Both the position numbers and the translations under genes were made by a program. Positions 43,241 through 62,786 of a stretch of DNA of 64,000 bases are shown one piece after another (position 1 is the first letter of the stretch; every line of letters begins with the position of its first letter). The notes under the pieces are model-generated. The model saw nothing but the letters and a program-made list of their open reading frames with translations, did not search any database and was not told the DNA's origin. This DNA comes from Longimicrobiales bacterium (lineage in GTDB: Bacteria; Gemmatimonadota; Gemmatimonadetes; Longimicrobiales; Gaopeijiaceae): positions 928,001 to 992,000 of the forward strand of contig CBDCNQ010000004.1 in the NCBI GenBank assembly GCA_965219445.1, given 5' to 3'.

Positions 43241-43393
43241 GACTCAGCTCACAGAGTTGTGGTCGAGGCCCATCAACATGCAGTGCTTTTCCGTGGCCGC
43301 CAAGCCGGATCAAGGGCATCTGGGGCGGGGCTTCTGCTTGCGCCTACCGGCCAACTCTCGGATGTTGACCGCAGTCTGACCCGGAGTCCGCCC

Positions 43394-46051
43394 ATGTCCG
43401 ATCCCATCGCCCGCATCAACGTAGCCCTGGAAGGCCGCTACGCCATCGAGCGAGAGCTGGGCGAGGGCGGCATGGCCACGGTCTATCTGGCCGACGACCT
43501 CAAGCACGAACGCAAGGTCGCGCTGAAGGTCCTCAGGCCCGAGCTCGCCGCGGTCGTCGGTGCCGAACGCTTCCTGGCCGAGATCAAGACGACGGCGAAC
43601 CTCCAGCACCCGCATATCCTGCCGCTGTTCGATTCGGGCGAAGCCGGCAGCTTTCTCTTCTACGTCATGCCTTACGTGGAAGGCGAGACCCTCGCGGACC
43701 GCATCGACCGCGAGAAACAATTACCGGTGGACGAGGCGATGCAGATCGCAACGGCTGTGGCGAACGCACTGGATCACGCCCATCGGAACAAGGTCATCCA
43801 CCGCGACATCAAGCCCGCCAACATCCTGCTTCAAGACGGTGAGCCGGTGGTCTCGGACTTCGGGATCGCTCTGGCGGTTGGGGTCTCTGGCGGGCGGCTG
43901 ACGGAAACCGGCCTGAGCGTGGGCACGCCCCACTACATGAGTCCCGAGCAGGCGACCGGCGACCAAACGGTCGGTGCTGCGACGGACATCTACGCTCTCG
44001 GGGCGGTTCTCTACGAGATGTTGGTTGGCGACCCGCCTTATGTGGGGAGCACGGCTCAGGCGATCCTCGGCAAGATCATCGCGGGGAAGCTCGCGTCGGC
44101 GACCGAAGAGCGGGCATCGGTCCCCAGCAACGTGGACGCGGCGATCAGAAGGGCGCTGGAGAAGCTCCCGGCAGACCGCTTCACAGGCGCACAGGACTTC
44201 GCCAAGGCGCTGGCAGATCCCGCGTTCCGGCACGGTGACGAAGCGGTCGCAACCGCCACGGCCACCGTCGGCTCGTGGAAGCGCGTGGCGATTGCCACGT
44301 CGGCACTGTCCGTGGTCCTGGCGGCGGGCCTGGGATGGGCGCTCATGGGTGACAACGCGGCACCACCCCTGACCCGCTTCACCGTTCCACCCCCGGATGG
44401 TCTCAACTTGGGTGGGGTCTGCTGCGGCCCCGTGACAGCGCTCTCCCCGGACGGGGAGTGGCTGGCCTTCGTCGGGATCGGCGGAGGTCCCGTGTATCGC
44501 CGCAGACTCGGGCAGCTCGAAGCCGAGGAGGTGCCCGGAACGGAGGGAGCCTCCATCCCGTTCTTCTCCCCGGACGGGCGCTGGCTCGGCTTCCACTCCG
44601 GCGCGCGACTCCTCAAGGTCCCGATGAGCGGCGGTCCGCCGGTACCGATCACCGAGACACCGTCGGCAGGGGGAGCCAGTTGGGGTGACAACGACGTCAT
44701 CGCGTTCGTTGACAATAGCACCGGTACCGGTGCGCTCTTCACGGTTCCGGGCGCGGGGGGCGTGGCGACTCCGGTCTTGGGGCCCAGCGACGGGGTTGAG
44801 TACAATTTTCCGTGGATGTTGCCGGGAGGCGAAGCCGCGCTCATGACGGTGCGAGCTGGTAACCCCGCGGAACTCCGCATGGTCGTCGTCGATCTGGAGA
44901 CCGGCGCGGCGGACACACTCGGGTTCGGTACGCGGGCGGCCTACGCCTCCGGCCACCTCGTCTTCTCGGGTTCGGACGGCACGCTGCTGGCCCAGCCATT
45001 CGATCCGGAGACCCGCCGCACCACGGGGCAATCCGTCGCGATCCTCGACGGCGTCGCCCTCTCGGGCCCGGGGCTCGGCCAGTTCGCGCTGTCGGCTCAG
45101 GGGGGGCTGGCGTACGAGGCCGGCGGGGGGGCGGGAGGGAATACCCTGGTCATCGAAGGCCCGGGCGGGTCTGCTGCGGTGAGCCTCCCCGAGCAAGGCA
45201 ACATCGAGGATCCCGCGTTCTCGCCCGACGGACGGCGCATCGCCATGCGGTTCGTGAACGTAGGCGAGAACCAGGACATCTGGATCTTCGACCGCGACCA
45301 GGGGACGCTCGAGCGTCTCACCGAGGAAGGCTCCCAGAACGCGGTGCCGGTGTGGACGCCCGAGGGCGCGCGTATCGCCTTCGCTAGCGTCCGAGACGGT
45401 GAGCCCCCCCAGCTCTACTGGCAGCCAGCCGACGGCAGCGGATCCGCCGAACGGCTGCTGGCGACGGACTTCCGAACGATGCCGGGCTCGTGGTCCCCGG
45501 ACGGGCAGACGCTGGCGTTCGTCGGAGAGCGCAACGGGAGCTGGGACGTCGGGCTGCTCACGCTAGGGGACTCGACGCCCCGCTGGATCCTCGAGACCGA
45601 GTTCAACGAGCTCCAGCCGCAGCTGTCGCCTGACGGGCTCTGGCTCGCATACACGTCCGGCCGCTCGGGCGAACAGGAGGTCTACGTGGAGGCCGCGAGC
45701 GGGGAAGGCCGCCGGGCCCAGGTGTCGATCGACGGAGCCCACTCCCCGCGCTGGGCGCCCGACGGCGACGTCCTCTACTACGCGACCGGGGACGGCGGCC
45801 AGGCCGGCACCATCATCGCGGCCACGGTCTCAACGGACGGGGGCTTCCGCGTAACGTCGCGCGTCGAGCGATTCGAGGTGAGCGATCTGAACAGCTTGAA
45901 CGTGCCCGGACAGGCCCCGAGCGTGAACTACGACGTGCACCCCGAGGGAGAGGAGTTCGTGCACATCAGGCTAGTGGGTGCCGGGGGACAGACTCTCATC
46001 TGGATCCTCAACTGGCCCGAGATCGTCCGGGAGATGACGAGCGTACGGTGA
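43394..46051 (+). CDS. Hanks-type Ser/Thr protein kinase with TM segment and C-terminal TolB-like (PD40) beta-propellers
   Basis: True start is ATG 43394. GEGGMATVY, HRDIKPANIL, DFG, YMSPEQ and repeated SPDG motifs. Confidence 0.95.
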   Translation: MSDPIARINVALEGRYAIERELGEGGMATVYLADDLKHERKVALKVLRPELAAVVGAERFLAEIKTTANLQHPHILPLFDSGEAGSFLFYVMPYVEGETLADRIDREKQLPVDEAMQIATAVANALDHAHRNKVIHRDIKPANILLQDGEPVVSDFGIALAVGVSGGRLTETGLSVGTPHYMSPEQATGDQTVGAATDIYALGAVLYEMLVGDPPYVGSTAQAILGKIIAGKLASATEERASVPSNVDAAIRRALEKLPADRFTGAQDFAKALADPAFRHGDEAVATATATVGSWKRVAIATSALSVVLAAGLGWALMGDNAAPPLTRFTVPPPDGLNLGGVCCGPVTALSPDGEWLAFVGIGGGPVYRRRLGQLEAEEVPGTEGASIPFFSPDGRWLGFHSGARLLKVPMSGGPPVPITETPSAGGASWGDNDVIAFVDNSTGTGALFTVPGAGGVATPVLGPSDGVEYNFPWMLPGGEAALMTVRAGNPAELRMVVVDLETGAADTLGFGTRAAYASGHLVFSGSDGTLLAQPFDPETRRTTGQSVAILDGVALSGPGLGQFALSAQGGLAYEAGGGAGGNTLVIEGPGGSAAVSLPEQGNIEDPAFSPDGRRIAMRFVNVGENQDIWIFDRDQGTLERLTEEGSQNAVPVWTPEGARIAFASVRDGEPPQLYWQPADGSGSAERLLATDFRTMPGSWSPDGQTLAFVGERNGSWDVGLLTLGDSTPRWILETEFNELQPQLSPDGLWLAYTSGRSGEQEVYVEAASGEGRRAQVSIDGAHSPRWAPDGDVLYYATGDGGQAGTIIAATVSTDGGFRVTSRVERFEVSDLNSLNVPGQAPSVNYDVHPEGEEFVHIRLVGAGGQTLIWILNWPEIVREMTSVR

Positions 46052-46113
46052 CGACTTCCGATGCCGTCAGCCGCATTAACACAGCCCTAGAAGGCCAAGG
46101 AGTGATGTCATGA
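46048..46113 (+). other. 21-codon mini-ORF homologous to the kinase N-terminus, coupled to both neighbouring genes
   Basis: VTTSDAVSRINTALEGQGVMS*. Its GTG overlaps the kinase stop (GTGA) and its TGA overlaps the next ATG (ATGA). Confidence 0.7.
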
Positions 46114-47782
46114 GTCGAACGCCCCTCTATGCGAATCGCGCAAAGTTCTGGAACCTGCTTCTTACGACCGTTTTCGTGGCGAGCACGACGGCATGTGCGT
46201 ATGGGGGGGACGATGGGGGAGCCGCGGTCGCGGTCACGGACGGCAGCGGTGCCGCGATGGGAAGCGTGGCCTTCCCCGTCTCGTGCGGCGAGGAGGCCAG
46301 CGCCGAGATGCGACTCGGGTTGGCGCTGCTTCACAACATGACCTATCCAGAGGCAGAGGCCGTATTCAGGCGTGCAGCCGAGTCCCGAGCCATCCTGCGC
46401 GTTGGCCTACTGGGGGCAAGCGATGACCTACCTTCACCCCCTCTGGCCGGACAATCCCACTGCGGAGCAGTTCGATCGCGGTTGGGAGCTGCTGCAGGAG
46501 GCCCGCAGTCAGGGCCTACCGACGCCGCGGGAAGAGGCGTACGTGACTGCGCTCGAGGCGTACTACCGGGATGCGAGCCAGCGGGATGAGACCACTCGGT
46601 TGGCGACCTACGAGGATGCATGGGCCCAGGTCCGCGCAGACTATCCGTCTGACCAGCGAGGCAGCCCTGTTCAGTGCCCTTGCGTTGATCGCCACCGCCT
46701 CGGGTGCCGCGGACGGGCTCGACCGGCGGGTCGACGCCGGTTCCATCGCGGAGGCGGTGCTCCAGGCCATCCCCGACCATCCGGGAGCGCACCACTATGT
46801 GATTCACGCTTTCGACATGCCTTCCCTGGCCGACCGTGCCCTTCCGGTTGCCCGGCGGTACGGGAACGTGGCGCCCGACAACTCGCACGCGTTACACATG
46901 ACCTCACACATCTTCACGAGGCGGGGCCTGTGGGGGGAGTCGATCACCTACAATACACGAGCGGCAGACTTGGCTGGGCCGGTCGACGGTGCAGTCTCAG
47001 GTCCGCGACTCCATGCCATCGACTACCTCGTGTATGCACGCCTGCAGCGTGGCGAGGATGATGCCGCTCGGGAGGTGCTCGACGGGGTGAACGCGATCGA
47101 CGGCCCCATCGAGGACCACGCGGCCGCGATCTACGCTCTTGCTGCGGTCGAGTCCAGGCTGGCGCTCGAGCGACACCGGTGGGCGGACGCCGCGGATGTG
47201 AAGGTCCGCCAACCGGCTGCCGTCGCTTGGGACAGGTATCCACACCTGGAGGCGATTCCGTGGTTCGCCCGTGCCCTGGGCGCGGCACACACCGGGGATC
47301 TGCAGGCCGCCCGCCGATCGGCTGAACGGCTCGCCGAACTTGAGACGGCCGCGGCGGGCGTCCCCGACGCGTACGATTGGGCTGCCCAGGTCAGAATCCA
47401 ACGGATGGGGGCACTGGCCTGGATCGCGCTCGCGGAGGGCCGAACAGACGAGGCCGTCTCGCTCATGACCGAGGCCGCCGAGCTCGAGGCTACCACCGAG
47501 AAGAACCCGGTCACGCCTGGAGGGGTGCTCCCTGCTGGAGAGCTTCTGGGCGACATGCTCATGGAGCTCAACCGGCACGTCGAGGCGCTGGAGGCCTATA
47601 CCGCCGAGCTGGAGCGAACCCAGAATCGGTTCAACAGCCTGTACGGGGCTGGTCTCGCTGCCGAAACCTTCGACAGGGAGATCGCCGCGGGCTACTACTA
47701 TCAGCTCCTCGAGGTGGCAGGCACGGAGGTCACGAGACTGGCGCCGCTGGAGCACGCCGAGGCGTTTCTCGCGGAGGGATAA
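46110..47782 (+). pseudogene. Exported TPR-like protein with conserved His motifs; two +1 frameshifts (about 46385 and 46653)
   Basis: Three overlapping ORFs join into one protein with GLALLHNM, CALAYWG, PDHPGAHHYVIH, HALHMTSHIF and LHAIDYLVY if one C is removed at each site. Confidence 0.8.
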
Positions 47783-47812
47783 GCCGTTTTAGGTTACCGC
47801 CCTCTCTCACCC

Positions 47813-50068
47813 GTGTGCCCGATCGCGACGATCGCCCGCGTGGGAGTGTTTGCCTTCGTCTGCCTGATCACTGTCCTGCCCGCTGGCGCCCAGCAGCTCT
47901 TTTCCGCGAGACCGGGTGAGGCCCCGTACGTGGTACCACGGATCGAGGGATCCATCGTCCTGGACGGAAGAATGGACGAGACGGCCTGGCAAGCCATCGA
48001 GCCCCTGCCGGCTTCCATGCATTTGCCCACGTTCGGTGCACCGCCTACCGAGCGCACCGAGTTCCGCCTCGCCTACGATGCCAGGTACTTGTACTTCTCG
48101 TGTCAGTCGCATGACTCGGATGTCGACGGCATCCGTATGTATTCGCTCGAGCGGGACGAGAGATCGTTCCGAAGCGATTTCTGCTCCATCTATATCGACA
48201 CCTTCAATGACGAAGAGAACGCGCTGCAGTTCAAAACGTCTCCCTCGGGAAATCGTACCGACTCACACCGCTCGAACGACGGCGAGGGAATCAGCAACCA
48301 GAGTTGGGACGCCTTCTGGGATGTGGCGGTGTTCAGGGACGAGAACGGATGGTTCGCCGAATTTCGCATTCCCTTTTCGAGCATGCTCTTTCAGGCGACC
48401 GACGGACGGGTGGTCATGGGTGTGTCGATGCTACGCAATATCTCTCGGAAGAACGAGCGGCACGTGCACCCGGCCATCCCGCCCGATCTGGGTACCTCCG
48501 CGTTTTCCAAACCGTCACAGATGCGCAAGATCATCCTCGAAGCGGTGGAGGAGCAGGGCAAGCCCGCCTACGTCACCCCGTACCTTCTCGGCGGCGGTGG
48601 TCATTCCCAGGTGCTCAACGAAATCGGAACGGGCTACGACCGCAGCACGGATCGAGTGGAGGAAGCGGGTCTCGACGTGCGCTACGGCCTCACGTCCAAC
48701 CTCACGCTGCAGCTTACGGTGAACACCGACTTCGCCCAGGTGGAGGCCGACGACCAGCAAGTCAACCTCACCCGCTTCTCCCTCTTTTTCCCCGAGAAAA
48801 GGCGCTTCTTCCAGGAGCGAGCGCCGAACTTCGAGTACTCGCTCGGAGGGCAGGACCGGCTATTCCACTCCCGGACCGTCGGGCTATCCGAGGGCAGGCC
48901 GGTCCGGATCTACGGCGGGGGGCGTGTGGTGGGGCGGGTCGGAGATTGGGACGTCGGCGTCCTGAACCTTCAGACCGCGGAGTCCGAAGCTCTTCCCTCG
49001 GAGAACCTAGGCGTGGCCCGCCTCCGGCGTCGCGTGTTGAACCCCAACTCCTACGTGGGCGGAATCCTGACCAGCCGGTTGGGTTCGGGGGGGCGCCGCA
49101 ACATCGTCTACGGGGCGGACGCGATCTTCCGCGTTGCGGGGAACGATTATTTGGTCCTGAACTGGGCCCAGAGTTTCGACGACCAAGAGCCGGCCACAGG
49201 ATCGGTCGGGCCCCTCGACCGAGGCATCGTGCGCTTGAACTGGGAGCGTCGGGGGTCGGATGGGCTCACCTACGCCCTCGATGTCGCCCGGACGGGAGAA
49301 CTGTTCGATCCGGGAATGGGCTTTCTTCGGCGCAGTGACTTTACGAAGGGTCAGGCCAGCTTGGGTTATGGGTGGCGTCCGGGAATCAGAGGGAGGATGT
49401 TCACCTACGCGCTCCAATTCGACGGATCAGCCTTCCGCCGCAACGACAATGGGAATATCGAGACGGCGGAAATCGAGACGAGGCTGATCCTCGAGACGTG
49501 GGGCCGACACCAAGTGAACCTTTCCGTACCGTACCGCTACGAGAACCTGGAGTCGTCGTTCCCCCTACCGGAGGGTAATTCGGTTCCAGCAGGGATCCAC
49601 CGCTTCGCCGCGGTCGGACTCCAGTACCGGTCGCCCCAGGGTGATCGGTTTCGAACCAACGTAGCCGTCGAAGGCGGGCGGTTCTTCGATGGACGGCAGG
49701 TCTCCCTGTCCGTCGGGCCGATCTGGGATCCATCTGCGCACTTGAACCTGTCCGCAAACTACCGCCTCGACTATGTGGAATTCCCCCGCCGTGACCAAAG
49801 CTTCACCTCAAATCTCGTCCGGCTCCGGATTCAGGTATCGCTCTCGACCGAGATCTCTGCCGCCTGGTTCGTCCAGTTCAGCAATACCGACCGGGAGATC
49901 GTCTCGAACCTTCGCTTTCGCTACAATCCCAGCGAAGGCAACGACCTTTACATCGTCTGGAACGAGGGCCTCGTGACGGACCGCAACTACTTCGATCCGG
50001 TGCGTCCGCTGAGCGATGAGCGGACGATCCTGATAAAATACTCCCACACCCTCCAGTTCGGCCTTTAG
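47813..50068 (+). CDS. DUF5916 domain protein with CBM9-like N-terminus
   Basis: LDGRMDETAW, WFAEFRIPFS and VNTDFAQVEAD...NLTRFSLFFPEKRRFF. Confidence 0.85.
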   Translation: MCPIATIARVGVFAFVCLITVLPAGAQQLFSARPGEAPYVVPRIEGSIVLDGRMDETAWQAIEPLPASMHLPTFGAPPTERTEFRLAYDARYLYFSCQSHDSDVDGIRMYSLERDERSFRSDFCSIYIDTFNDEENALQFKTSPSGNRTDSHRSNDGEGISNQSWDAFWDVAVFRDENGWFAEFRIPFSSMLFQATDGRVVMGVSMLRNISRKNERHVHPAIPPDLGTSAFSKPSQMRKIILEAVEEQGKPAYVTPYLLGGGGHSQVLNEIGTGYDRSTDRVEEAGLDVRYGLTSNLTLQLTVNTDFAQVEADDQQVNLTRFSLFFPEKRRFFQERAPNFEYSLGGQDRLFHSRTVGLSEGRPVRIYGGGRVVGRVGDWDVGVLNLQTAESEALPSENLGVARLRRRVLNPNSYVGGILTSRLGSGGRRNIVYGADAIFRVAGNDYLVLNWAQSFDDQEPATGSVGPLDRGIVRLNWERRGSDGLTYALDVARTGELFDPGMGFLRRSDFTKGQASLGYGWRPGIRGRMFTYALQFDGSAFRRNDNGNIETAEIETRLILETWGRHQVNLSVPYRYENLESSFPLPEGNSVPAGIHRFAAVGLQYRSPQGDRFRTNVAVEGGRFFDGRQVSLSVGPIWDPSAHLNLSANYRLDYVEFPRRDQSFTSNLVRLRIQVSLSTEISAAWFVQFSNTDREIVSNLRFRYNPSEGNDLYIVWNEGLVTDRNYFDPVRPLSDERTILIKYSHTLQFGL

Positions 50069-50119
50069 TCTCCCACTGAATCTCGCCCCTCCAGAGTGGC
50101 TGCGATCCTGGGATCTAGC

Positions 50120-50551
50120 CTAGGGATTCGCACTGATGACAATGCGGTCCAGGCCCTCGTGCTCGAGTTCGTTTGCCCCCGCGGGATAGCTGTTGGCACT
50201 GAGAACGAAGGCCATGATGTCTCGATAGGTTTGTGCCGACAGAGTGCCGGGTCGATCGGGCGGCATCCGTTCTTGGATTCGCTCGAACAAGGCACCCAAA
50301 GTGAATCCGCCCCAGAGAAACGCGAAGCTCTGTCCGACGAGGCTCGGCGAAGTATTGTCGCCCCGCAGGTCCGGCGCGTGATACCCGGAGCACGACATCG
50401 TGTACTCAACCCGTCCACGCTCGGCCTGGGCCTCGCTATAGACCCCGTCCCACACAGTGCGCTGAGCGTCGGCCGGTGTTTCTTGCGCGTAGGCGGGACT
50501 CGTAGTGGCGAAAACGAGCGACATGGTCAGGAGCCTCTCCCATCGCTTCAT
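50120..50551 (-). CDS. Small c-type cytochrome partner of the PQQ dehydrogenase; heme motif reads CSGYH
   Basis: Signal peptide, TVWDGVYSEAQAERG and RMPP. ATG overlaps the upstream stop (TGATG). Confidence 0.8.
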   Translation of the reverse strand: MKRWERLLTMSLVFATTSPAYAQETPADAQRTVWDGVYSEAQAERGRVEYTMSCSGYHAPDLRGDNTSPSLVGQSFAFLWGGFTLGALFERIQERMPPDRPGTLSAQTYRDIMAFVLSANSYPAGANELEHEGLDRIVISANP

Positions 50552-52253: not shown

Positions 52254-52268
52254 CGGTTGCCCTCTCTT

Positions 52269-52487
52269 TCAGCCGACGATCTGCGGTATCAGCGTCCCCT
52301 CAACGTCCGTGAGCCGCCAGTCGCGGCCACTGAATCGATACGTCAGCTCCCTGTGGTCCATGCCGAGCAGGTGTAGCATCGTCGCGTGCAGGTCGTGCGC
52401 CGAGACTGGCTGCTCCAGAGCCTTGTAGCCGAAGTCGTCGCTCGAGCCGATGACCTGCCCCCCGCGGATTCCCGCGCCGGCCATCCG
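52269..52487 (-). pseudogene. C-terminal remnant (about 70 aa) of a DUF1501 protein
   Basis: MAGAGIRGGQVIGSSDDFG...HDLHATMLHLLGMDHRELTYRFSGRDWRLTDVEG is the characteristic DUF1501 tail. The rest of the gene is absent. Confidence 0.8.
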
Positions 52488-52636
52488 ACCGACGGACGTC
52501 TGGAGTGCGTGCATTGCCACCTCGCCTTGATCCCCTCTCCCGAAACCGCCGATCAGGGTTGTTCGGGCAAGAAAGGGATTCGTTGAGCCAGAATAGGTGG
52601 CTTCGCGCTCGTCACGCAAGGAAAGAACGCAGCCCC

Positions 52637-52694
52637 GCGGCCCTCGAAAAAAGCCGCTACGCGATCGAGCGTGAGCTGGGGTGAGGGCGGCATG
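52637..52694 (+). pseudogene. Remnant of a Hanks kinase 5' end
   Basis: Reads AALEKSRYAIERELG(+1)EGGM, versus VALEGRYAIERELGEGGM in the intact kinase. Confidence 0.8.
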
Positions 52695-52717
52695 CGGTCC
52701 CGAAGGTCCGTAATCGA

Positions 52718-54479
52718 CTAGTTCTGGGGCGTCAGCAGCTCGTAGTACGCCGGCACCGAGAACCCGACCGGATCGACTTGATAATACTGACCTTTGGCAA
52801 AATGCCCCGTGGTGGGGTAATACGGTGGAGGCTCGGTCGCCGCACATGAATCGTAGCTGTAGCGCTTCACGTATCCGGTTCCAGCGCCCGTGCCGACCGC
52901 ACCACGCGTCTTCTGGATGATTCCACCCGTGATGTAGAGGCAACCCCGGCCCCACGTCTTGGCTTCGCAGCTCTCGTCGTTCCGGCTGCCCGCGTTGTAG
53001 CCTTGCACAGTAAAGATGTCGAGGGCCAGAATCACACCGTGGAAGAACTCGTCCTTGGTGTCGTCGTACGTCCGGTAGTCCCAGTTGGTGCGCGGCCTTT
53101 GCGGAGCATTCAAGAGGTTGTCGGCAACGATCACGCGTTTGCCGGAGAACATGCCGAACATGTCCTGGCACAGACCCGCCCCGGGATCCGTAGCATAGAT
53201 GATGTCGTCGGCGAAGATGATGTCGTCTGTAGATGCCAGGGTCACCCGGCCCCGTAGCACACCGCTCACCGCCACTTTGCCCGTGACCGAGATCACGCCT
53301 TTGAAGCTGGGGTTGTACTGACGAGAAAGGGGAAAGAGGTAACCGGCGTCGGGACGGCCCGCGAGCCCGGGAGCCTGGATTCCGGTGTAGGGAAGCCAAC
53401 TTCCCTTCCCGTCATTGACCACGAAACCGTTGGTGATGGCGTCCTGTCCGCCCAGGTAGCAGCGACGGGCGGAAGACGTCAGGGCCTGCAGGGCCGTCAC
53501 ATCGGGAGTGCCGGGATCGTTGTCGTGATCATACGGGTGGTTCGCTGCCGCCACGAAAGTGCCGCCGTACCAGGCACCGCAGTTCTCGTTATTCCTGAGG
53601 TCGCTGTCCCATGTACCAACGACCCAGGCCTCATTCGTGGACTGGAAGACTTTTGAAGAAACCCTCGTCGTCGTCCGTGACGTCACCGTCGTTGTTCAGG
53701 TCGATGGCGACGAACTCGATGCGCGTGCTCGCCTGGCCGTAGCCGCCGTTGCTGTCGCCGGTAAAGAGCGTGCCGCCCGCCGCGGCCTGGGCGGCGACTT
53801 TGCTGAGGTCCGCCGTCTGAGGCATCTCGATCCTGGGCACGTACTCGTCGTAGCCCATCATGAATGTGCCGTATTGCGGAGAAGGTACCCTCTTTGCCGT
53901 CCGCACCTCTTGGTGGAAGGTGGCTCCCGACGCATAGATCTTCAGGTCCGAGTTGGAGTGCACGGGGCCAAAAATCTGGTCGCCCCCGCCGAACGAGATG
54001 TAGGACGGCTCGATGTCGGTGAAGTAGGCGAATTTCGCGAAGCTCTCCTGGTAGACCTGAGCACGCCGGATAACCTCGCCGCCACCGTCGTCCCGTACGA
54101 TGGAGACGACGCTTCCGAAGATACCGTACTGACCGGTGGTCACACCGGTGGGACCCACATATAGCCACCGCTTGACGCCCGGGATCGTGTTGCCGTCGCC
54201 GTCCTTGAGCGCCACGCCGTCCTCGAGCGTAGCGTAGGCGCTGTCTGGGTAGAGGGTCGGGTCGCCGTTGACGAGGGCACGAGCGTACTCGAGGCCGCTG
54301 TTGGCCATAATCTGGAGCTGATTGGTCCGTTCGTAGTAGCGGTTCGCCAGGATGTGGTTTCCGCCCACCAAAACCGCTCCGGTGGTCAGTGCGCCCACAA
54401 CGAGCACGACGAGCATCGTGACGACCAGGGCGAACCCGTCCTTTTCGGAGACGTTCGTGAGGTGGGTAAGTGCTTTCAT
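52718..54479 (-). pseudogene. PilX-like minor pilin with a large C-terminal domain; +1 frameshift near 53651
   Basis: Prepilin-like GFALVVTMLVVL, GPVHSN and GGIIQ...GYVKRYSYD. Removing one T from TTTT (53651-53654) joins EGFFK to VFQST. Confidence 0.8.
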
Positions 54480-54507
54480 GATGCGATCCTTCTTTTCGAT
54501 CTGGGGC

Positions 54508-55677
54508 CTAGTTTACCGTGATCTGCTGAGCCGGCGACAGCGGGGACAGAGACGGTGTGCAGTCCTGGGCCGCATGGGCGTACTGATACGTGCTGCCGAC
54601 CTGCACCGTGGCGTCCTCGTACGTATACGAGGCGGCGCCTGCGGGTATGCTGAGGAACGGATCTCCCCAGTCACCAAGGTTCGGGACATTGCGGCGGTAG
54701 AGCACGTAACGGATGACGTCCCGCTCGCCCACAGACTCGTCCGTGGCCGGGGGCCAGTCGAGCCGAACGATGGGCGTGCCGCCAGGGCTGACGACCTGTA
54801 CGGTCAAAGGGCTCCCGAGAATCGGCTCGTCACCACACGTCAACACGATGCCGAAGCCGGCGCTGGGCAGATCGATTACGCGGCTCAGGTCGGCAAACCA
54901 TTCGGCAGCTCCCGGCCGCCCGTTGGTGGAGCGAAAGCTGACACGCACCCCACGGATGCTGTCTGCCCTGGCGCTGTTCGCCGTGTCCGTGGTTGATCCA
55001 TGAAGCAGGACCGAGTGAAAAAGAGGGAGGTCAGCGTCGGGAATGCTGTCGAGCTCGGAACTCTGACTCGTGTACCTGCGCTCACCGAAGTAACGGAAGA
55101 ACGGCATCGATCCCTGCTTCAACAGATTCCTTGCGAGGACCTCGGGTGCCGCGTCGTTCACTTGCCGTTTGAGGACATAATCGTCGGCCCGGGCCGTCGT
55201 GGCGTCGGGCTCGAAGAAGTAGATGATCAACTCGGCCAAGCTGGGCGTGCCCCCCGGGGCCAGATAGATGGTGTCCGGCCACGCGAAGGGCGAGTTAGGA
55301 ATGTTGATCTTTACGCGAGGCGCCTGAACCAGTCCGTTGGGGGCATCGACGTCGACGTACACGGCGGACACGTCGTTGACCAGGTTCGACGTGTAGTCCC
55401 CGGTAAAGGCGATCACGTCTTCGCCTGCCAGCACCATCCCCGGCTGTCCCGCCGGCACGTTGCTGCCCAGGGTCGTGAGATCGATCTCCATCGTCTGATA
55501 CGCATACCGGAGGTTCTGAAGCGTCATCAATTGATTGGCGCCCTTGAGGAAAGCTCTGTGCTGCACCGTCATGAACCCCAATGCGCCGGTAATTACGATT
55601 CCGAATACGACGGTGACGATGAGGAGCTCGATCATCGTAAACCCCGCCTTCCTCCAAGAATTATCTCGCCTGTTCAT
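54508..55677 (-). CDS. PilW/PulJ-like prepilin with C-terminal FN3-like domain
   Basis: AGFTMIELLIV N-methylation motif. C-terminal VRLDWP...YVLYRR...YEDATV...YQY. Confidence 0.85.
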   Translation of the reverse strand: MNRRDNSWRKAGFTMIELLIVTVVFGIVITGALGFMTVQHRAFLKGANQLMTLQNLRYAYQTMEIDLTTLGSNVPAGQPGMVLAGEDVIAFTGDYTSNLVNDVSAVYVDVDAPNGLVQAPRVKINIPNSPFAWPDTIYLAPGGTPSLAELIIYFFEPDATTARADDYVLKRQVNDAAPEVLARNLLKQGSMPFFRYFGERRYTSQSSELDSIPDADLPLFHSVLLHGSTTDTANSARADSIRGVRVSFRSTNGRPGAAEWFADLSRVIDLPSAGFGIVLTCGDEPILGSPLTVQVVSPGGTPIVRLDWPPATDESVGERDVIRYVLYRRNVPNLGDWGDPFLSIPAGAASYTYEDATVQVGSTYQYAHAAQDCTPSLSPLSPAQQITVN

Positions 55678-56060
55678 GGTGACCCCACGACGATGGTTCG
55701 GGACAAGCCCTCGTCGAGACCCGGACCCGAAACGGAAACCATCACCTCTTTGAAGTCGGTGACACGACCCCCCTGACCCTGAGTCTTCACGTGGGTGATT
55801 TTGGTCACGCGATCGAAGCCTTCGAGGCCGGGCAGGTCACCCTCCGTTTTCGCGTACAGTAACTCCAGGTCCTCATATCTCGGATCCATCACGATCAGGG
55901 AGATCCGCCCCTGCACAGCCTGGAGAGCTTCGGACTTCACTCCGGCGCTGGATGCGGCCTGCAACATGTAGGTTGCGGAGGCACCTATGCCCAGAATGGC
56001 GGTCGTGAGGATGAAGACCACCACGGTCATCTCGATGATCGTGAATCCACGTTTATCCAT
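55674..56060 (-). CDS. PilV-like prepilin
   Basis: MDKRGFTIIEM. Overlaps the next gene (ATGA). Confidence 0.85.
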   Translation of the reverse strand: MDKRGFTIIEMTVVVFILTTAILGIGASATYMLQAASSAGVKSEALQAVQGRISLIVMDPRYEDLELLYAKTEGDLPGLEGFDRVTKITHVKTQGQGGRVTDFKEVMVSVSGPGLDEGLSRTIVVGSP

Positions 56061-56062
56061 GA

Positions 56063-56620
56063 TCAGCAGCCCTCCTGCCAAGCCAGGGTCCGATAGGTAA
56101 AGCAACGGACCCGCCCGGTAGCCCGCTCGACCTGGAGAGCCCGCGTATCCTGGGAGTTGTTGCCCGCACTGGCGGCGCGAAAGGAGGTGAGATAGATGAC
56201 CCCCTCTTCGCTGGCGGCTCCGTTGCGATGGAACGTGAGCGCCGGGAGTTGCTCGGCCCTCTTCTTGAACGAGATGGCCTCGACCAGGCCCAGGATCGGT
56301 GTGGCCCCCCCGCGGTCGAACGTCACGCCCTCGGGGAGCTGCACCGTTCTGCGCTCCTCTCCGGCGTCCGTCTTCCCGTTGTTGTTCGCGTCGTCGAGCA
56401 AGACGAACCCGTCGTCGTGGAAGATGAGCACATAGTCGTGCTGGCGTAGAATCGCCCGCCCCCTTGCGGACGCCACGGCGGACCCGACCTCTCGCATGGC
56501 TGCGTCGAGCTGGAAGCGGGGGACGTCGATCCTGGGAACCACGATGAGCATGAGGATTCCGGCCACAGCCAGAACGATGAGGACCTCGATCAGGGTGAAC
56601 CCGACTTGGGGGGCGGGCAC
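56063..56620 (-). CDS. FimT/GspH-like prepilin
   Basis: GTG 56620 after a GAGGGG RBS. GFTLIEVLIVLAVAGIL and ARGRAI. Confidence 0.85.
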   Translation of the reverse strand: MPAPQVGFTLIEVLIVLAVAGILMLIVVPRIDVPRFQLDAAMREVGSAVASARGRAILRQHDYVLIFHDDGFVLLDDANNNGKTDAGEERRTVQLPEGVTFDRGGATPILGLVEAISFKKRAEQLPALTFHRNGAASEEGVIYLTSFRAASAGNNSQDTRALQVERATGRVRCFTYRTLAWQEGC

Positions 56621-56712
56621 AGGATCCCCTCTGCGTACACCGGGGGGCGTACCGCTCCAGAACTGAGCGGAGGGTTTATACGTCATGCGGTAGTCCAACG
56701 GACCACAGTGGA

Positions 56713-56729
56713 TGCAAGGGGTGTGCCCA
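56713..56729 (-). promoter_or_regulatory. Putative sigma54 (-24/-12) promoter of the minor-pilin operon
   Basis: Minus strand TGGGCACACCCCTTGCA, with exact GG-N10-GC spacing, about 90 bp upstream of the first pilin gene. Confidence 0.7.
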
Positions 56730-56962
56730 GAGGCGAAGAAAGGCCGAAAACCGGTGATAAGCCAGTTCCCTCCCGGCATATCACCGGTGTCCATCGTGGG
56801 TGACAATGGGGGAAAACGGACAACGTTTTCCCGTATTGGACAAAATATCCGAGACCATCTTGTGTCCGAACTACTGCCGGGCTGCCGGGGGTGTTCAACG
56901 TTGGGTCAGTGACAGAACAATCTTGCCAACCAGTATCCTCCGGTGACATACGTTTTGGTACC

Positions 56963-58027
56963 ATGTCTGCCGACACACTTGAATGTACCGAGCACGTCGA
57001 AGCCGCCGATCGGGCCGGCCTCCGTTACACGACGGACTCGGTCCGCGGAATAAGTCGCAAGCGCGTAGGCGACGGATTTATCTACGTCGCGGCGAACGGA
57101 ATCCCCGTCACGAGCGAACGGAAGCTCCGCCGCATCCGCGGACTCGCTATCCCGCCAGCGTGGACCGACGTGTGGATCTGCCCGCACGCGACAGGGCATC
57201 TCCAGGTCACCGCCCGCGACACGAAGGGGCGTAAGCAATACCGATACCACACGAAGTACCGCGCTGTCAGAGACGAGAGGAAGTTCAACCGGATGCTCGA
57301 TTTCAGCCAAGTGCTCCCGACGACACGTGAGCACGTCGAAGCGCACCTCCGGTTGCGCGGCCTCCCCCGTGAAAAAGTGCTGGCGACGGTCATTTGGTTA
57401 TTGGAGCGGACACTGATTCGCGTCGGAAACGCGGAGTACGCGAAGGAGAACGAGACCTTCGGCCTGACCACGATGCAGACCCGGCATGCCGAAGTGAGGG
57501 GGTCCCAGGTCATGTTCTCGTTTCGTGGAAAGAGCGGGAAGGACCACTCGGTCTCGGTCAGCGATCGCCGGCTCGCCCGGGTCATCCAGAGGTGCCACAC
57601 GCTGCCCGGAGAGGAGTTATTTCAATATGTCGACGAGAGTGGTTGTCTCCGTAACGTCGAGTCCGGCCATGTCAATGAGTATCTGCGGGCGGTCGCCGGT
57701 CTGGGCGTCTCCGCCAAGGACTTTCGCACGTGGGGTGGCACCATGCTTGCCGCGCAGCTCTTACGTGAGTTCGGTCCCGCCCACCGGGTGCGTCAGAGGG
57801 AGTCGAACATCGTGAGGGCGGTCGATCAGGTGGCAGAGCGGCTTGGCAACACGCGAACGGTCTGTCGTAAGTATTACATCCACCCGGTGGTTCTCGGCGC
57901 TTACCGGCGTGGTCGGGTTCTGCCACCGCTGGCCGAAAAGACCGAGATCGTACGCCGCAAGAACCAGCCGCGCCTTCGGCACCACGAGAGCGAGGTCATG
58001 CAGTTCATCCAGGAGAACCAAAGCTGA
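56963..58027 (+). CDS. DNA topoisomerase IB (bacterial/poxvirus-like)
   Basis: IPPAWTDVWIC, GRKQYRYH, IRVGN, FRGKSGK, KDFRTW and LGNTRTVCRKYY. Confidence 0.95.
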   Translation: MSADTLECTEHVEAADRAGLRYTTDSVRGISRKRVGDGFIYVAANGIPVTSERKLRRIRGLAIPPAWTDVWICPHATGHLQVTARDTKGRKQYRYHTKYRAVRDERKFNRMLDFSQVLPTTREHVEAHLRLRGLPREKVLATVIWLLERTLIRVGNAEYAKENETFGLTTMQTRHAEVRGSQVMFSFRGKSGKDHSVSVSDRRLARVIQRCHTLPGEELFQYVDESGCLRNVESGHVNEYLRAVAGLGVSAKDFRTWGGTMLAAQLLREFGPAHRVRQRESNIVRAVDQVAERLGNTRTVCRKYYIHPVVLGAYRRGRVLPPLAEKTEIVRRKNQPRLRHHESEVMQFIQENQS

Positions 58028-58217
58028 AGAAGGTGTGAGACGATCATGCGCGCGCTGTGGTATTGAGGATGACCAGAAAGCATGACCGGCCCCGAGAGAC
58101 TTAGGGTCGCCGCTGCTGAATCGCGAGCACCGCACTGGGATCGACGGGCAATCCTCACCCCTGTGCCCCCGTTCGGCCTTTAGAGGCAGGAGAATTCCAC
58201 ACGTCGCCGACGCTGCT

Positions 58218-59735
58218 TTATTGTTCGACTTGTGGTACGGCCTCCAGTAGCAGCTCGAATGCTCGGTTCAGTGCCTGGCCACCGGCTCGTGCGCCCGTGT
58301 ACTTACCCAGCCGCACCACCACGAGTTGATGCGTTGGGATCATGGTGGCGCTCTGCCCTCCGGCCCCTCGCATGCCGTACGCGCTCTCAGGTAGTGGCCA
58401 GCCGCCGTCGCCGTTCACCCACGTGAAGGCGCCGCCGTATCGGGGGCGCCCGTCGGCGACCCAGGCTGGCGCGAGCGTCGTCGCGTATTCGACATACCCC
58501 TCAGGCAGAATCCGCTCTCCGTTCCACACACCATCTTGGAGATAGAGATTTCCCAGCCTCGCCCAGTCTCGGGCTGGAAGGAACTCGTACCCTTGAGCCA
58601 AGAAATTTCCGTATGGGTCGGTCTCGATGATCGCGTCGCGAATCCCGATCTTGTCGAACAGGTTCCTCTGTGGGAACGAGTGATAGTCCTCCCCTCTCCC
58701 CTCCACCGCCAATCGGATGAGATAGTTGGCGAGCACCGGATCGCTGTTCCGGTACCTGCCCACGGTGTTCGGCTCCCACTCCTGGGGCCGAGTCGCCGCC
58801 CACTCGAATGAGTTCACACTGCCCGTGTAGAGATAGAGATGGTCTGCGTACCCGATTGAGGGATCGAAGTCGGGGTCCTGTGGGGCGCGGATCCGGATCC
58901 CACTCGACATCCTCATGATGTCGCCGATGCGGATAGCCTGCCGGGGGTCCCCAGCCGACTGCCACTCGGGAATGGGCGCCGGCTGCCAGAGCTCGTACGC
59001 GCCCTGCTCAATGAGCACGCCCATGAGGGCGCCCGTCAGGCTCTTTGCCATGGACCAACCCTCGAGCGGCGAATGCATGTCGACCTCGGGCCCATAACGT
59101 TCGCCGAGGATTCTTCCTTTGTACGTAACGACCAGGGCGAGGGTACGAGCTTCCGGCGGACCGAACCCCGCGTCGAGCACCTCCTCGACCTTGGTCATGT
59201 CCACCTCTTCGGGCCATGGCTCATCGGTGAGTACGTCCCCCATGGGCCACGGCGTTGACGCGGCAGGCGGAAGCTTCCGCTCTACCTCTGTCGGCGTGAA
59301 GCGCACGGAATCCTCGCCGATGGCGTGCGTCACGCATCCCTGGTTCTTGTACCTCTTCGCGGTGCGAATGACGCCGTCCGGCAAGGTCAGACTCACCTGT
59401 TGACGCTGGAAATCGACTAGCGTGTCCACCACGTGTCGCCGTTCCTCGAACGGGCTCGTGAAGCCGCCCACGTTTGCCGCTGCATCGTTGGGGTCGAGAC
59501 CCGTGATGAACACGGCCGAGCACAGGGTCTTCGCGAAGCCGGATGTATAGTGGTGGAGCGCCTGGCCGGGGGGTGGAACGTAGTCGGTGTCCAGTTCGAG
59601 CGACGCAGCCCGACCGATAAGGGCCGCACGGGCATCGTCGGAGCCGGCCTCAGACTGACTTTCAGGGCCGGCACATGCGAGCAACCCGAGAAGGGCGACC
59701 GAGATGAGAAACTGTCGGTGCGAGGCCGGGTGCAT
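58218..59735 (-). CDS. Serine hydrolase (beta-lactamase-related) lipoprotein
   Basis: AGGAGG RBS, lipobox LLAC, SMAK (SxxK), YRN and GAGGQ. Confidence 0.9.
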   Translation of the reverse strand: MHPASHRQFLISVALLGLLACAGPESQSEAGSDDARAALIGRAASLELDTDYVPPPGQALHHYTSGFAKTLCSAVFITGLDPNDAAANVGGFTSPFEERRHVVDTLVDFQRQQVSLTLPDGVIRTAKRYKNQGCVTHAIGEDSVRFTPTEVERKLPPAASTPWPMGDVLTDEPWPEEVDMTKVEEVLDAGFGPPEARTLALVVTYKGRILGERYGPEVDMHSPLEGWSMAKSLTGALMGVLIEQGAYELWQPAPIPEWQSAGDPRQAIRIGDIMRMSSGIRIRAPQDPDFDPSIGYADHLYLYTGSVNSFEWAATRPQEWEPNTVGRYRNSDPVLANYLIRLAVEGRGEDYHSFPQRNLFDKIGIRDAIIETDPYGNFLAQGYEFLPARDWARLGNLYLQDGVWNGERILPEGYVEYATTLAPAWVADGRPRYGGAFTWVNGDGGWPLPESAYGMRGAGGQSATMIPTHQLVVVRLGKYTGARAGGQALNRAFELLLEAVPQVEQ

Positions 59736-59808
59736 GACCATCCTCCTGTTCGGGTTCGCCGGTAGCGTACGGTCGGCGCTCGCCGCTGGCAATCTGCCCG
59801 GCCTCAGC

Positions 59809-62394
59809 TCAGTTCCGGTTGCTTCCTCCGATCGGATCACCGGCAAGCATCTGCAGCTGCGGTCCGGGCACGGTGTTCTCGATGCGCGCCTGCCAGCGGC
59901 GAATGTCCGCGGCCACGAGCCGCTGGTGCGGCGACGGTGCCGACGTGCTCTCGATGCCCTCCGCGAGCCTATCGAGGCGATCGGACAGAACGGCACGGAC
60001 CTCGGCAGGGTTACCGGCACTGCTCGCTTGCTGCATCATCCGATCGGCCACCGAGCGCTGAACGCCATGGATGACGCGCTGGCGGTATTCGTCCGCCGCC
60101 GGGGGCGAGTCCCAGGTGGCCTCGATCAGCCGATCGGCGACCTCCTCCAGGTCGGGATAGTCCCCCATGCTCCCGAAGACGACCAGCCGGGCCATCCGCT
60201 GCGGGTGGAGGATTTCCCCGACAGAGAAGTTGGCCGCGGCCTCAGCGGCTGCCAGGGGATCGAAGAGGAGCTCGGTATGACCGGGGAAGGCCTCGCCTTC
60301 ACCATGCCGGAAGGCCGCTGGCGGGATCAGGGACACGATGTCCTCCGGGAGCGCCAGGAAGTCGACCGTAAGGGTGGACAGGATGGTCTCTAGGGCGTCG
60401 CGCTGCGCCTCTCCGGGAACGATCGTGAAGGGGCTCTGGCCGTCTCCTTTCACCGCGTTCCGGTAGTCTGCACCCCCGAGGCTCTGGGCCGCCGAGCGGA
60501 GCTGAAAGCGGTGATGCATGTACAGAGGGAGCAACACGTACTCCAGATTCGAAAGTGGCTCGCCCGTCCGAATCGCATTCACCCCGAACCGTTCGAGCCC
60601 GATCTCGCGCACGTGGATCTCGAGCTTGAGGTGGTCGACGAGGTTCGCGCCGTTGTCCCAGACGCTCGCATACTGGTGACCTGCCCCGATGAAGTTGTTG
60701 TTGGTGTGCCCCATGTAGATGAGGCCGTCCTCGACCCCCTGCTGAGCGATCTGGGCTAGCGAACCGACTTCATCCGCGCCGGTCGGAAATTCACGATAGA
60801 GCCAGTTCACGGAGAGCTTGTCGTACTCTCCGATCCGCTGCAGGTAGGCGTTGGACAGATCGAGGCTGCCATCCTCATCGATCTCGACTAGCGGTGCGGG
60901 ATAGTCCATCACGCTCTCCCGTCCGTAGCTGCTCGCAATATAGTTGTGAGGAAATCCGAGCGTATGGCCGACCTCGTGGGCCGAGAGCTGACGGACCCGC
61001 GCCAGCGCCATCTCTACCGCCTCCGATTCGTCCACCACCTGAGCCAGGTATTCGAAGTTCGGCGCCCCGGCCAGCTCGCCCCCCTCGTAGTAGGCACCGC
61101 TTCTGTCCCGGCCCGCAGTGAAATCGAAGTACCCGCCGCCACCCGCCGAGGAGATCCCTTCGGGAAAGGGGGCCACCATACCCTGGCCGTGAAGGTAGTC
61201 CTGCCTCAGCCGAAGGCTCCCGAGGTTTACCACCCCACGCACGATCTCACCTGTGCGCGGGTCCGCCACCGTGTTCCCGTAGGAGTAGCCACGGGTTCGG
61301 CGGTGGGTCCAGTGGATCATGTTGTAGCGGATGTCCTGTGGATCCACGCCTTCGGGCAGCACCTCGACCCGGAAGGCGTCGATGAATCCCGCGGCCTCGA
61401 AGGCCTCGTTCCACCAGCTCGCCCCGTCGATCAACGCGCTGCGAATCGGCTCGGGTGTGCCCGGATCCACGTAATAGACGATGGGCTCGACGGGCTCGGA
61501 CGGCCCGGGCCCGGGATTGCGCTTCTGCAAGCGATGGCGCGCCGCCCATCTCTGGCGCGTGTCCTCGTCGATGGGGGTAGCGTAGTCGTACACGGTGGGA
61601 CCGTTCACTCCTACCCTCGGGTCCGCTGTGCGGGTGCGATAGCCGTCATCGGGTAGCCGGATGAAGGAGTGGTGCTGGCGCAGTGTTATGGCTCCGCCGG
61701 TCGCGGCTACGCCCCGAACCAATCCGCCCGGCTCGGCACTCGTGAACGTGAGGATGGCCTCGACCTCGGTATTTTCCGGGAACGACCGAGTCGCGGGCAA
61801 GTGGATCGCACTCCGGGACCGGTCGAGCTCAAAGCGACCCTGGTTCCGCTGCGCGATCTGCTCTATGACGCCGCGGGCGTCACGAAGGAAGAACTCCGTC
61901 GCATCCACCAGAACCCGGTCTCCGGTCTCGGCAACGATGTCGAAACCCCAGTGCACCGAGGGTGCGAAGGCATCTCGCACCGCTTGAGCTTCCGTCGGGT
62001 TGTCGCTGCGCGCCCGGAACCGGTAGTTGGGCTCCATGAGGAGTACGCGGGGACCGATGCGCCTCGGCTCCAGAACGTGCGTGCCCGAGAGCTGACCCCT
62101 GTCGATGCCGACCGGATTGCTTCCGAGTCCCGAGCCCATGGAGATCTGATAGAGGAACTCGCTACCCGGCTCGTCGATCTCCCAGTACAGAGACCCGCTG
62201 GAATCCTCCCAGTAGAGGGAGAAGAACCCTTCCATGCGATCGGCGTTCTGGGTCTTTTCTTCGATGCTGGGCAGTGGGCCTTCCTGTGACAGGGCCGAGG
62301 GTGCGAAGCCGGCGGAGGCCGCCACACTGAGAGCCGTGACTGCTGCGAGCCGGCCGAGCCCGCCGGCAGCCCGCCAGATGGATGAACAGGACAT
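59809..62394 (-). CDS. Exported zinc-dependent metalloprotease (metzincin; DUF5117/DUF4953 type)
   Basis: HEVGHTLGFPHN, SVMDY Met-turn, EPIVYYVD and DPRTGEI. Confidence 0.9.
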   Translation of the reverse strand: MSCSSIWRAAGGLGRLAAVTALSVAASAGFAPSALSQEGPLPSIEEKTQNADRMEGFFSLYWEDSSGSLYWEIDEPGSEFLYQISMGSGLGSNPVGIDRGQLSGTHVLEPRRIGPRVLLMEPNYRFRARSDNPTEAQAVRDAFAPSVHWGFDIVAETGDRVLVDATEFFLRDARGVIEQIAQRNQGRFELDRSRSAIHLPATRSFPENTEVEAILTFTSAEPGGLVRGVAATGGAITLRQHHSFIRLPDDGYRTRTADPRVGVNGPTVYDYATPIDEDTRQRWAARHRLQKRNPGPGPSEPVEPIVYYVDPGTPEPIRSALIDGASWWNEAFEAAGFIDAFRVEVLPEGVDPQDIRYNMIHWTHRRTRGYSYGNTVADPRTGEIVRGVVNLGSLRLRQDYLHGQGMVAPFPEGISSAGGGGYFDFTAGRDRSGAYYEGGELAGAPNFEYLAQVVDESEAVEMALARVRQLSAHEVGHTLGFPHNYIASSYGRESVMDYPAPLVEIDEDGSLDLSNAYLQRIGEYDKLSVNWLYREFPTGADEVGSLAQIAQQGVEDGLIYMGHTNNNFIGAGHQYASVWDNGANLVDHLKLEIHVREIGLERFGVNAIRTGEPLSNLEYVLLPLYMHHRFQLRSAAQSLGGADYRNAVKGDGQSPFTIVPGEAQRDALETILSTLTVDFLALPEDIVSLIPPAAFRHGEGEAFPGHTELLFDPLAAAEAAANFSVGEILHPQRMARLVVFGSMGDYPDLEEVADRLIEATWDSPPAADEYRQRVIHGVQRSVADRMMQQASSAGNPAEVRAVLSDRLDRLAEGIESTSAPSPHQRLVAADIRRWQARIENTVPGPQLQMLAGDPIGGSNRN

Positions 62395-62606
62395 GGGATC
62401 ACCTCGTTTTGGAGTCGATTCCGGAGGGCCCGACTTTCTCGGAGCACGACCAGGTTAGTCGCGCCCAATCTGCCGTGAGCGGGAAACCGGGCGCAAGCAG
62501 GAACCAGGGCCCGGGGCCGGGCCACGCTGGAGCGAGTAGAGCACGGCCGTCCTCGTCTCTGCGCCCTCCTTGCCGCCCAACACCCCTTCGACGCATCTTG
62601 TCGGCC

Positions 62607-62684
62607 ATGTCCATTCCCGTTATCCCCTTAAACGCCGCCCTGGAGGGCCGCTACCACCCGGGAATGGGGGAGCCTCTCGCTTGA
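62607..62684 (+). other. 25-codon mini-ORF homologous to the kinase N-terminus
   Basis: MSIPVIPLNAALEGRYHPGMGEPLA*. Preceded by TTGCCG-N18-CATCTT ending 7 nt before the ATG, which could be a leaderless promoter. Confidence 0.75.
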
Positions 62685-62786
62685 CCCATACCGATCGAGG
62701 CGCCAGCGGTCTGTGCCAGGAGCTCGAGCGCCGACGATCCGACAACCCCTCCCGACCCCACAGGAGTACTGCACCGGAATGACCAA

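Follow-up and report, generated by a model that had tools for sequence, protein, structure and literature searches.

Truncated kinase gene starts as probable homology anchors for unrelated genes in marine Longimicrobiales

Introduction

How accessory genes enter chromosomes one by one without integrases, and from where they take their promoters, is an open question. It is raised by a 64,000-nucleotide (nt) stretch of a Longimicrobiales bacterium genome (contig CBDCNQ010000004.1, positions 928,001 to 992,000; hereafter the window), in which an intact gene for a Hanks-type Ser/Thr kinase is accompanied by three short fragments, or stubs, that resemble kinase gene starts and adjoin unrelated genes. 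An original prediction, made from the letters of the window alone, held that the conserved 5′ end of an expanded kinase family serves as a recurrent breakpoint or homology anchor, behind which other genes replace kinase bodies. We analysed the kinase pieces of the whole genome (G000, in which the window is C4:928001-992000) and of its relatives (other G numbers; L numbers denote loci). The reading that we consider probable is that kinase stubs, many of them with a promoter-like sequence, act as short homology anchors, which move genes and give them a promoter.

Results

Kinase starts outnumber other kinase pieces

A nucleotide hidden Markov model (HMM) of the kinase domain had 65 hits in G000: 17 full domains, one of which is the window kinase, 32 pieces that begin at model nt 1-8, 5 that begin at nt 26-42 and 11 from the interior. 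The reversed genome, used as control, gave no hits at E<0.1. In an independent blastn census, for which 59 full kinases served as queries and 9 internal hits within other open reading frames (ORFs) were set aside, 32 clusters were start-anchored and 12 were 3′-anchored, while 6 fell within the kinase domain and 6 within the body. Test pieces of 60 nt were detected in 59, 58 and 54 of 60 cases across the kinase domain, in 27 and 21 of 60 in the body and in 27/48 at the C-terminus. These detection rates indicate that the 5′ excess is real and that the 3′ count is too low. Stubs are thus not rare in this genome (32 start-anchored pieces versus 17 full domains), nor are internal pieces equally common. 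A general 5′ bias of gene debris was rejected as the cause of the excess: a noisy census of non-kinase gene fragments, mostly remnants of insertion sequences (IS) and integrases, counted 79 5′ ends, 153 3′ ends and 147 internal pieces.

The 89 start-anchored stubs found in seven genomes ended between nt 45 and nt 502, 52 of them at nt 45-90. Shorter stubs than those detected by the kinase HMM, as well as copies cut within the promoter-like sequence, were found with promoter HMMs, so that the ends form a continuum from inside the promoter to codon 167. The claim that only the first 15-27 codons are ever kept did not hold, since stubs end anywhere from codon 15 to codon 167, and promoter-only copies and 3′ pieces exist as well. 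Sites in G000 comprised 17 full genes, 18 promoter-like sequences with stub, 15 stubs alone and 34 promoter-like copies preceding unrelated genes without a detectable stub. Neighbouring 5′ sites within 6 kb were co-oriented in 24/28 cases, forming arrays with single cargo genes, and behind 62 of the 89 stubs a co-oriented ORF started within 400 nt (median ~73 nt).

A promoter-like sequence forms the left part of the unit

In most cases homology between the copies sets in abruptly at a CTTGC motif that lies 39-72 nt before the ATG. In type A a −35-like and a −10-like hexamer are 18 nt apart, and the ATG follows 7 nt after the second, whereas type B has a 27-nt leader containing GGAG. A third type, C, and further upstream sequences occur, among them the end of a preceding kinase. 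G000 had 35 hits of type A and 30 of type B. The motif CTTGC-N19/20-SATVTTG was found 10-51 times per genome in 12/12 congeners, versus 0-12 times in the reversed controls (50 versus 12 in G000). Because of their hexamer spacing the upstream copies are taken for putative promoters; a strict sigma-70 scan did not flag promoter A. That cargo genes may inherit kinase expression signals is plausible.

Identical junctions stand behind unrelated upstream sequences

If stubs are anchors, one and the same stub-cargo junction is predicted to occur behind upstream sequences that have nothing in common before the ATG. Comparison of 97 stubs yielded nine groups whose cargo was common across genomes, and three of the nine showed such swaps.

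In group 1 kinase nt 1-59 are joined to a 529-aa gene, and the junction is base-identical behind three unrelated upstreams: promoter A in G007 (L112), promoter B in G006 (L030) and a tandem kinase end in a metagenome contig (L256). L256, which was found through a cargo-side pattern, has the same arrangement as stub 1 of the window. Since the three upstreams are without similarity before the ATG, the crossover must lie inside the 59-nt stub. G000 carries this junction behind promoter C with a further 50-nt deletion (C5:314261). In G011 the cargo stands behind a kinase C-terminus, plausibly the state before the stub formed.

Group 2 has its junction between nt 80 and a 307-aa gene, behind promoter B in G006 and behind a remnant of C in G000 and G007; a contig of G010 has B plus nt 1-80. 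In group 3 the promoter is of type A in G006 and of type B in G005, and the join carries a short indel. The crossovers of these three groups thus fell inside the stub. In groups 1 and 2 the homology to G000 breaks off 4-5 nt beyond the cargo stop, and the cargo is 95-98% identical, compared with a median gene identity to G000 of 89.8% (G006) and 86.9% (G007). This fits a recent transfer in which one end was anchored and the other joined illegitimately. Genes behind the 5′ elements had a slightly higher identity between species (40 versus 300 genes, p 0.016).

The anchor role proposed originally is supported by the identical junctions behind non-homologous upstreams and by the large surplus of stubs over internal pieces. 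It has to be amended in that the unit usually begins at the promoter-like sequence, stub length is continuous and the kinase 3′ end persists too.

Kinase 3′ ends form a right part

The right part of the unit (R arm) is the kinase C-terminus, behind which the initial ~17 codons of a second gene are often found; the second gene is truncated in the 22 listed copies, and in one of them it continues into another ORF. There are 16 R arms in G000 and 51 in all sequence examined. Twenty of the 23 R arms without a detected kinase end follow a co-oriented gene. A 5′ element lies within 4 kb upstream on the same strand in 16 of the 23 and on the opposite strand in none; the loci of the relatives had been picked around 5′ elements, which biases proximity, not strand. 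The strand and position of these orphan R arms indicate that cargo is often bracketed by both kinase-unit ends in their original order. Of eight matches to the motif of one integrase subfamily, four lay no more than 3 kb from an R arm. An R-arm hairpin was considered and rejected, as R arms fold no better than shuffled sequences (z 0.06). At L092:7553-7680 (G005) promoter B, an R arm and a kinase stub are directly joined in a three-part mosaic.

Recombination signs within the kinase family

Two G000 kinases (C4:997532 and C4:859227) share 791 identical nt (nt 37-827); their upstreams differ and their bodies are 87% identical. Identical tracts between kinases begin at many codons (12, 13, 15, 25, 77, 86 and 124). 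Twenty kinase pairs have C-lobes that are 86-89% identical with bodies of 43-58% identity, and one pair shows the reverse; kinase domains and propellers are mosaic. Among 59 paralogues fourfold-site identity was 0.60-0.64 in codons 1-40 and ~0.4 beyond, whereas in 100 orthologue pairs it was flat at 0.78-0.80, with no 5′ effect. Genes for recA and dprA were found in 5/5 genomes searched (dprA in two pieces in G000) and comEC in 8/11 congeners. End-joining was ruled out as a shared explanation, because Ku is present in only 4/11 congeners.

Relatives and gene order

Kinase-start matches numbered 17-47 in 6/11 congeners, 0-7 in the other five and 0-3 in nine other genomes sampled. The stub pattern is genus-wide in these marine Longimicrobiales (Gemmatimonadota), and the sequences most closely related to the kinase start carry the labels Gemmatimonadota and Longimicrobiales. 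At element-centred loci the ratio of full genes to stubs was 32:11 in G005, 9:21 in G007 and 4:21 in G006. Some genera of another family have many kinase-start copies, mostly with long open frames, in tandem runs at ~2.7-kb spacing (full-length runs in G033:C5, G078:C2 and C16, and G051:C3), possibly a sensor repertoire with a constant kinase and a variable propeller.

Gene order relative to G000 was broken at 13/15 element junctions and at 17/57 control junctions (divergent or tandem, gaps of at least 50 nt, no element; Fisher p 2e-4), in an element-centred sample of genomes that are not independent and from which most pairs were dropped, one gene having no orthologue. The gap between thrS and infC holds no kinase in five relatives. 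Kinases occupy it in G000, G005 and G008; G007 has a remnant of the second gene there, and G011 a different gene. It is a recurrent insertion site (L141, L059, L161-L174), with one kinase and another gene in G000 and four kinases with three toxin-antitoxin-like pairs in G005.

Features of the window

Coordinates are collected in Table 1. The intactness of the kinase was confirmed; its Pkinase domain matches PF00069 (E 8.9e-49), and no NCBIfam equivalog cut-off was reached. The three plus-strand fragments read as originally described. In the genome-wide search with the nucleotide HMM of the kinase domain they matched with E 0.055 (stub 1, model nt 3-43), 2.3e-7 (stub 2) and 0.046 (stub 3, nt 1-48). 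Stub 2 lacks codons 1-8 and is therefore not start-anchored; it is an old remnant. The promoter-like copy upstream of stub 3 (E 2.7e-9) had been overlooked.

Table 1. Features of the kinase, the stubs and the adjoining genes in the window
Feature	Position	Strand	Remarks
Promoter-like sequence, type B, 5′ of intact kinase	43326..43393	+	Putative function; TTGCGC 43338-43343, 17 nt, GATGTT 43361-43366, 27-nt leader with GGAG
Intact Hanks-type Ser/Thr kinase, 885 aa	43394..46051	+	Pkinase, hydrophobic stretch, PD40/TolB-like beta-propeller
Kinase C-terminal coding segment, conserved	45751..46051	+	Persists elsewhere in genome as 3′ remnant
Stub 1, start of second tandem kinase	46048..46113	+	Homology 46056-46096
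Cargo 3′ of stub 1, TPR-containing protein	46110..47782	+	Two ORFs in assembly
DUF5916/CBM9-like gene, second co-oriented cargo	47813..50068	+	Neighbours differ in G006
DUF1501 gene fragment adjoining stub 2	52269..52626	-	Absent between same flanking genes in G002 and G005
Stub 2, kinase nt 27-81	52636..52694	+	One-base frameshift, no promoter, no start codon
Pilin-like gene cluster converging on stub 2	52718..56620	-	Adjoins PQQ gene without stub in G002 and G005
Promoter-like sequence, type A, directly 5′ of stub 3	62567..62606	+	Putative function; TTGCCG 62570-62575, 18 nt, CATCTT 62594-62599, 7 nt to ATG (leaderless spacing)
Stub 3, kinase codons 1-16	62607..62684	+	Codons at 62607-62654, open to stop at 62684
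Cargo 3′ of stub 3, 746-aa gene	62787..64000	+	Extends past window

All three stubs are bridged by public contigs, stub 1 by contigs of two studies (46023-48119 from run X1 and 46003-46949 from X4), stub 2 by 52408-53086 (X4) and stub 3 by 62381-62914 (X1). The contig over stub 2 has 0 differences, so the frameshift in this stub is real. In the cargo behind stub 1 single bases of the assembly, at 46384 and 46655, are missing from the public contigs; with these two assembly indels removed, the cargo is likely a single gene of ~556 aa. Other assembly frameshifts, such as those splitting kinases and dprA, may be artefacts as well. The 21-aa frame of stub 1 shares bases with the kinase stop (GTGA) at one end and with the cargo start (ATGA) at the other. 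At this stub the coupling of frame and cargo start is striking, but it was rejected as a general feature (coupled or fused 27/62 versus 37/124 in other frames, p 0.07).

No integrase or transposase was seen in the 46 of 257 window ORFs scanned, and the window gave no match to PF00589 (tyrosine recombinase) and 0 Rfam matches. The absence of integrases and IS near the fragments, as first noted, thus stands for the ORFs scanned; it does not extend to the genome, which has 66 PF00589 matches and an integron integrase. The G000 chromosome is unusually dynamic: many of the 66 matches occur in repeated copies on C5, and IS remnants are plentiful.

The prepilin-type cluster at 52718-56620 has other neighbours in G001, G005 and G007, and in G007 a related cluster converges on it. 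A bacterial topoisomerase IB gene lies at 56963-58027; its homologue in G008 and the end of a full kinase are ~4 kb apart. Just past the window (G000:C4:995863-997515, L158) type A also heads a second expanded family, of TolB-like/TPR proteins. An amidase gene at L158 carries a fused short stub of this second family, and immediately behind the amidase gene comes a full kinase without a promoter.

Discussion

Proposed route of gene movement

The likely route has two parts: gene starts that are nearly identical recombine, and the far end of the cargo is joined without homology. As the junctions suggest, an illegitimate, often microhomology-guided join would first delete a kinase body and set another gene behind the stub; the product would likely be retained when promoter and start drive the new gene. 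The DNA carrying stub and cargo could then recombine, within the first 20-30 codons, with any of ~50 kinase starts per genome, and the cargo would land behind a new promoter at a new locus. For this exchange the crossover position is read from the junctions, and RecA is the putative enzyme of strand exchange. At the far end the event would be completed by an illegitimate join just past the cargo stop or by way of a second remnant, made up of a kinase 3′ end and the beginning of the following gene. The donor would probably often be foreign DNA, taken up by putative transformation. We infer that the process is integrase-free because junctions vary and recombinases are unlinked to them, not because recombinases are absent.

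Several observations weigh against this route. Six of the nine groups need no stub crossover: two are vertical, three break at or to the left of the promoter and one has different junctions. None of the three window stubs was seen swapped: the stub 1 junction had 0 matches in metagenome contigs, the stub 3 cargo stands in G006 (91% identical) behind a type-B promoter with another junction, and the flanks of stub 2 are syntenic without the stub in G002 and G005, which at this site runs counter to the original prediction. In G005 the genes behind elements have no excess of identity. At 23/32 stubs the next gene is co-oriented, equal to the 70% for ordinary genes, and orientation bias was therefore discarded as proof of promoter capture; translational coupling of stub and cargo was not significant (15/62 versus 18/124 in other frames, p 0.11). 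Composition explains part of the silent-site excess (expected 0.48 versus 0.34-0.37), and the 791-nt tract, which is not read-validated, could be an assembly artefact. The 17 broken control junctions, and cargo that moved without arms (a 735-aa gene), indicate that other routes shuffle genes too. The anchors measure 25-60 bp at 85-95% identity. Anchors of this length and identity are short for RecA. Recombination of this type is rare in experiments, according to the accessible part of PMC5361080.

Other explanations

The strongest rival, which may also act alongside the anchor route, is deletion within one chromosome between co-oriented kinase starts serving as direct repeats. Arrays would collapse, cargo would end up behind the promoter of the upstream copy, and the stub would be the crossover point without any capture of foreign DNA. 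In favour of this, 5′ sites within 6 kb are co-oriented (24/28), tandem kinases are common, with the long ~2.7-kb-spaced runs in other genera, and direct start-to-end joins of kinases are found at C2:796395, C5:341904 and G005 L088. Against this speak the swapped cargos, which are 95-98% identical versus an average of 87-90% and have different neighbours in each genome; moreover, four upstream types for one junction would need suitable arrays to be rebuilt repeatedly. We regard such deletion as an unlikely sole source of the swaps.

Pure decay with promoter capture is less likely still. Here deletions would spare the promoter and a random piece of the start, and the stubs would have no further role in recombination. 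Continuous stub ends, running from inside the promoter to codon 167, are what such deletions would leave, as are the fall of the full-to-stub ratio from 32:11 (G005) to 4:21 (G006) and the co-oriented ORFs close behind 62/89 stubs. Decay accounts for stub formation, not for reuse: independent deletions cannot yield the same base-exact junction behind three non-homologous upstreams, and decay is contradicted for three groups unless these are artefacts.

About as improbable is a site-specific recombinase acting in trans, an integron integrase or another tyrosine recombinase that cuts around kinase codons 11-20 and exchanges cassettes as integrons do. Integrons hold co-oriented arrays of mostly single genes, toxin-antitoxin pairs among them, and have a fixed recombination point and attC sites. 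The kinase arrays resemble them in being co-oriented, mostly single-gene, near promoter-like sequences and, by annotation by eye, in containing toxin-antitoxin-like pairs; swapped stubs are best conserved at nt 31-59, and nt 37 is where the 791-nt tract begins. An integron integrase match was present in 5/5 genomes (TIGR02249, above cut-off in 4/5). The G000 gene (C2:398589-399521) lies on a contig other than that of the window; it has no obvious cassette array beside it, and a broken copy occurs in G006. What argues against a recombinase is that right ends are not fixed, stub-to-cargo joins ranging from inside the promoter to nt 502, that identical tracts start at many codons and that no integrase was seen in the window ORFs scanned. 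Two heuristic attC scans, run without a positive control, gave 0 hits at the boundaries. Unlike in integrons, every unit brings a promoter-like copy of its own, and there is no link between the arrays and intI. A fixed point may exist for later swaps, as opposed to stub-to-cargo joins.

As regards a transposon or miniature inverted-repeat transposable element, right ends vary and no transposase was seen in the window ORFs scanned, and terminal inverted repeats and target duplications were not systematically searched.

Relation to known systems

The comparisons that follow are confined to the accessible parts of the papers cited. Homology-facilitated illegitimate recombination was proposed for the effector-immunity arrays of the Vibrio cholerae type VI secretion system and for Rhs loci (PMC5361080). 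Common to those loci and the kinase stubs are a conserved 5′ region as one-sided anchor, an illegitimate other end, and remnants that build co-oriented arrays without an integrase. A crossover in a one-sided anchor was found here in 3/9 groups, and a non-homologous far-end join in the two groups where G000 permitted the check. The secretion system has three fixed anchor loci and effector-immunity cargo, whereas the kinase system would use ~50 dispersed starts for unrelated accessory cargo, and its remnants are mainly 5′ ends, many with a promoter-like sequence.

In the lpl cluster of Staphylococcus aureus (PMC2568036) recombination at a conserved stretch inside paralogues shuffles variable parts, and the evolving unit reaches from the 3′ end of a gene into the 5′ end of the gene after it, as the R arm does. 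That shuffling stays within one tandem cluster, whereas the conserved stretch studied here is dispersed and joined to unrelated genes. Minimal mobile elements of Neisseria (PMC3787668) likewise exchange variable content by homologous recombination in conserved flanks, but these flanks are long and single-copy at one orthologous locus, whereas the kinase remnants are 40-150 bp, multi-copy and at different loci; only the thrS-infC site behaves as a minimal mobile element does. Putative mobile promoters (PMC3575422) share with our elements the near-identical promoter regions before unrelated genes. That survey excluded paralogous coding sequence and described the route of promoter movement as unknown; in the present case a coding stub marks the crossover. 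What appears new, by this comparison, is the use of dispersed signalling-gene starts as anchors for unrelated cargo; homology-facilitated illegitimate recombination and paralogue shuffling are known. Literature searches, confined mostly to openly available papers without their supplements, returned no description of this system in Gemmatimonadota, and in the accessible part of PMC11316326 'kinase' is mentioned once, in another context.

Implications

A farther-reaching possibility, which we put forward only tentatively, is that the genus has a genome-wide, integrase-free cassette system in which kinase ends have been selected as 50-100 standard docking arms. The left arm would be promoter and start, and the right arm the C-terminus and the start of the next gene. 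If that were true, arm-tagged genes would be installed, expressed at once and exchanged between species, and the host machinery would do the job of an integron.

The base-exact junctions point to remnants of signalling genes as dispersed crossover points in nature, with promoter-like sequence attached. Kinase stubs offer a concrete and testable route for gene gain and promoter reuse. The findings also suggest that expanded families in other lineages may leave similar docking sites, which annotation discards as pseudogene debris.

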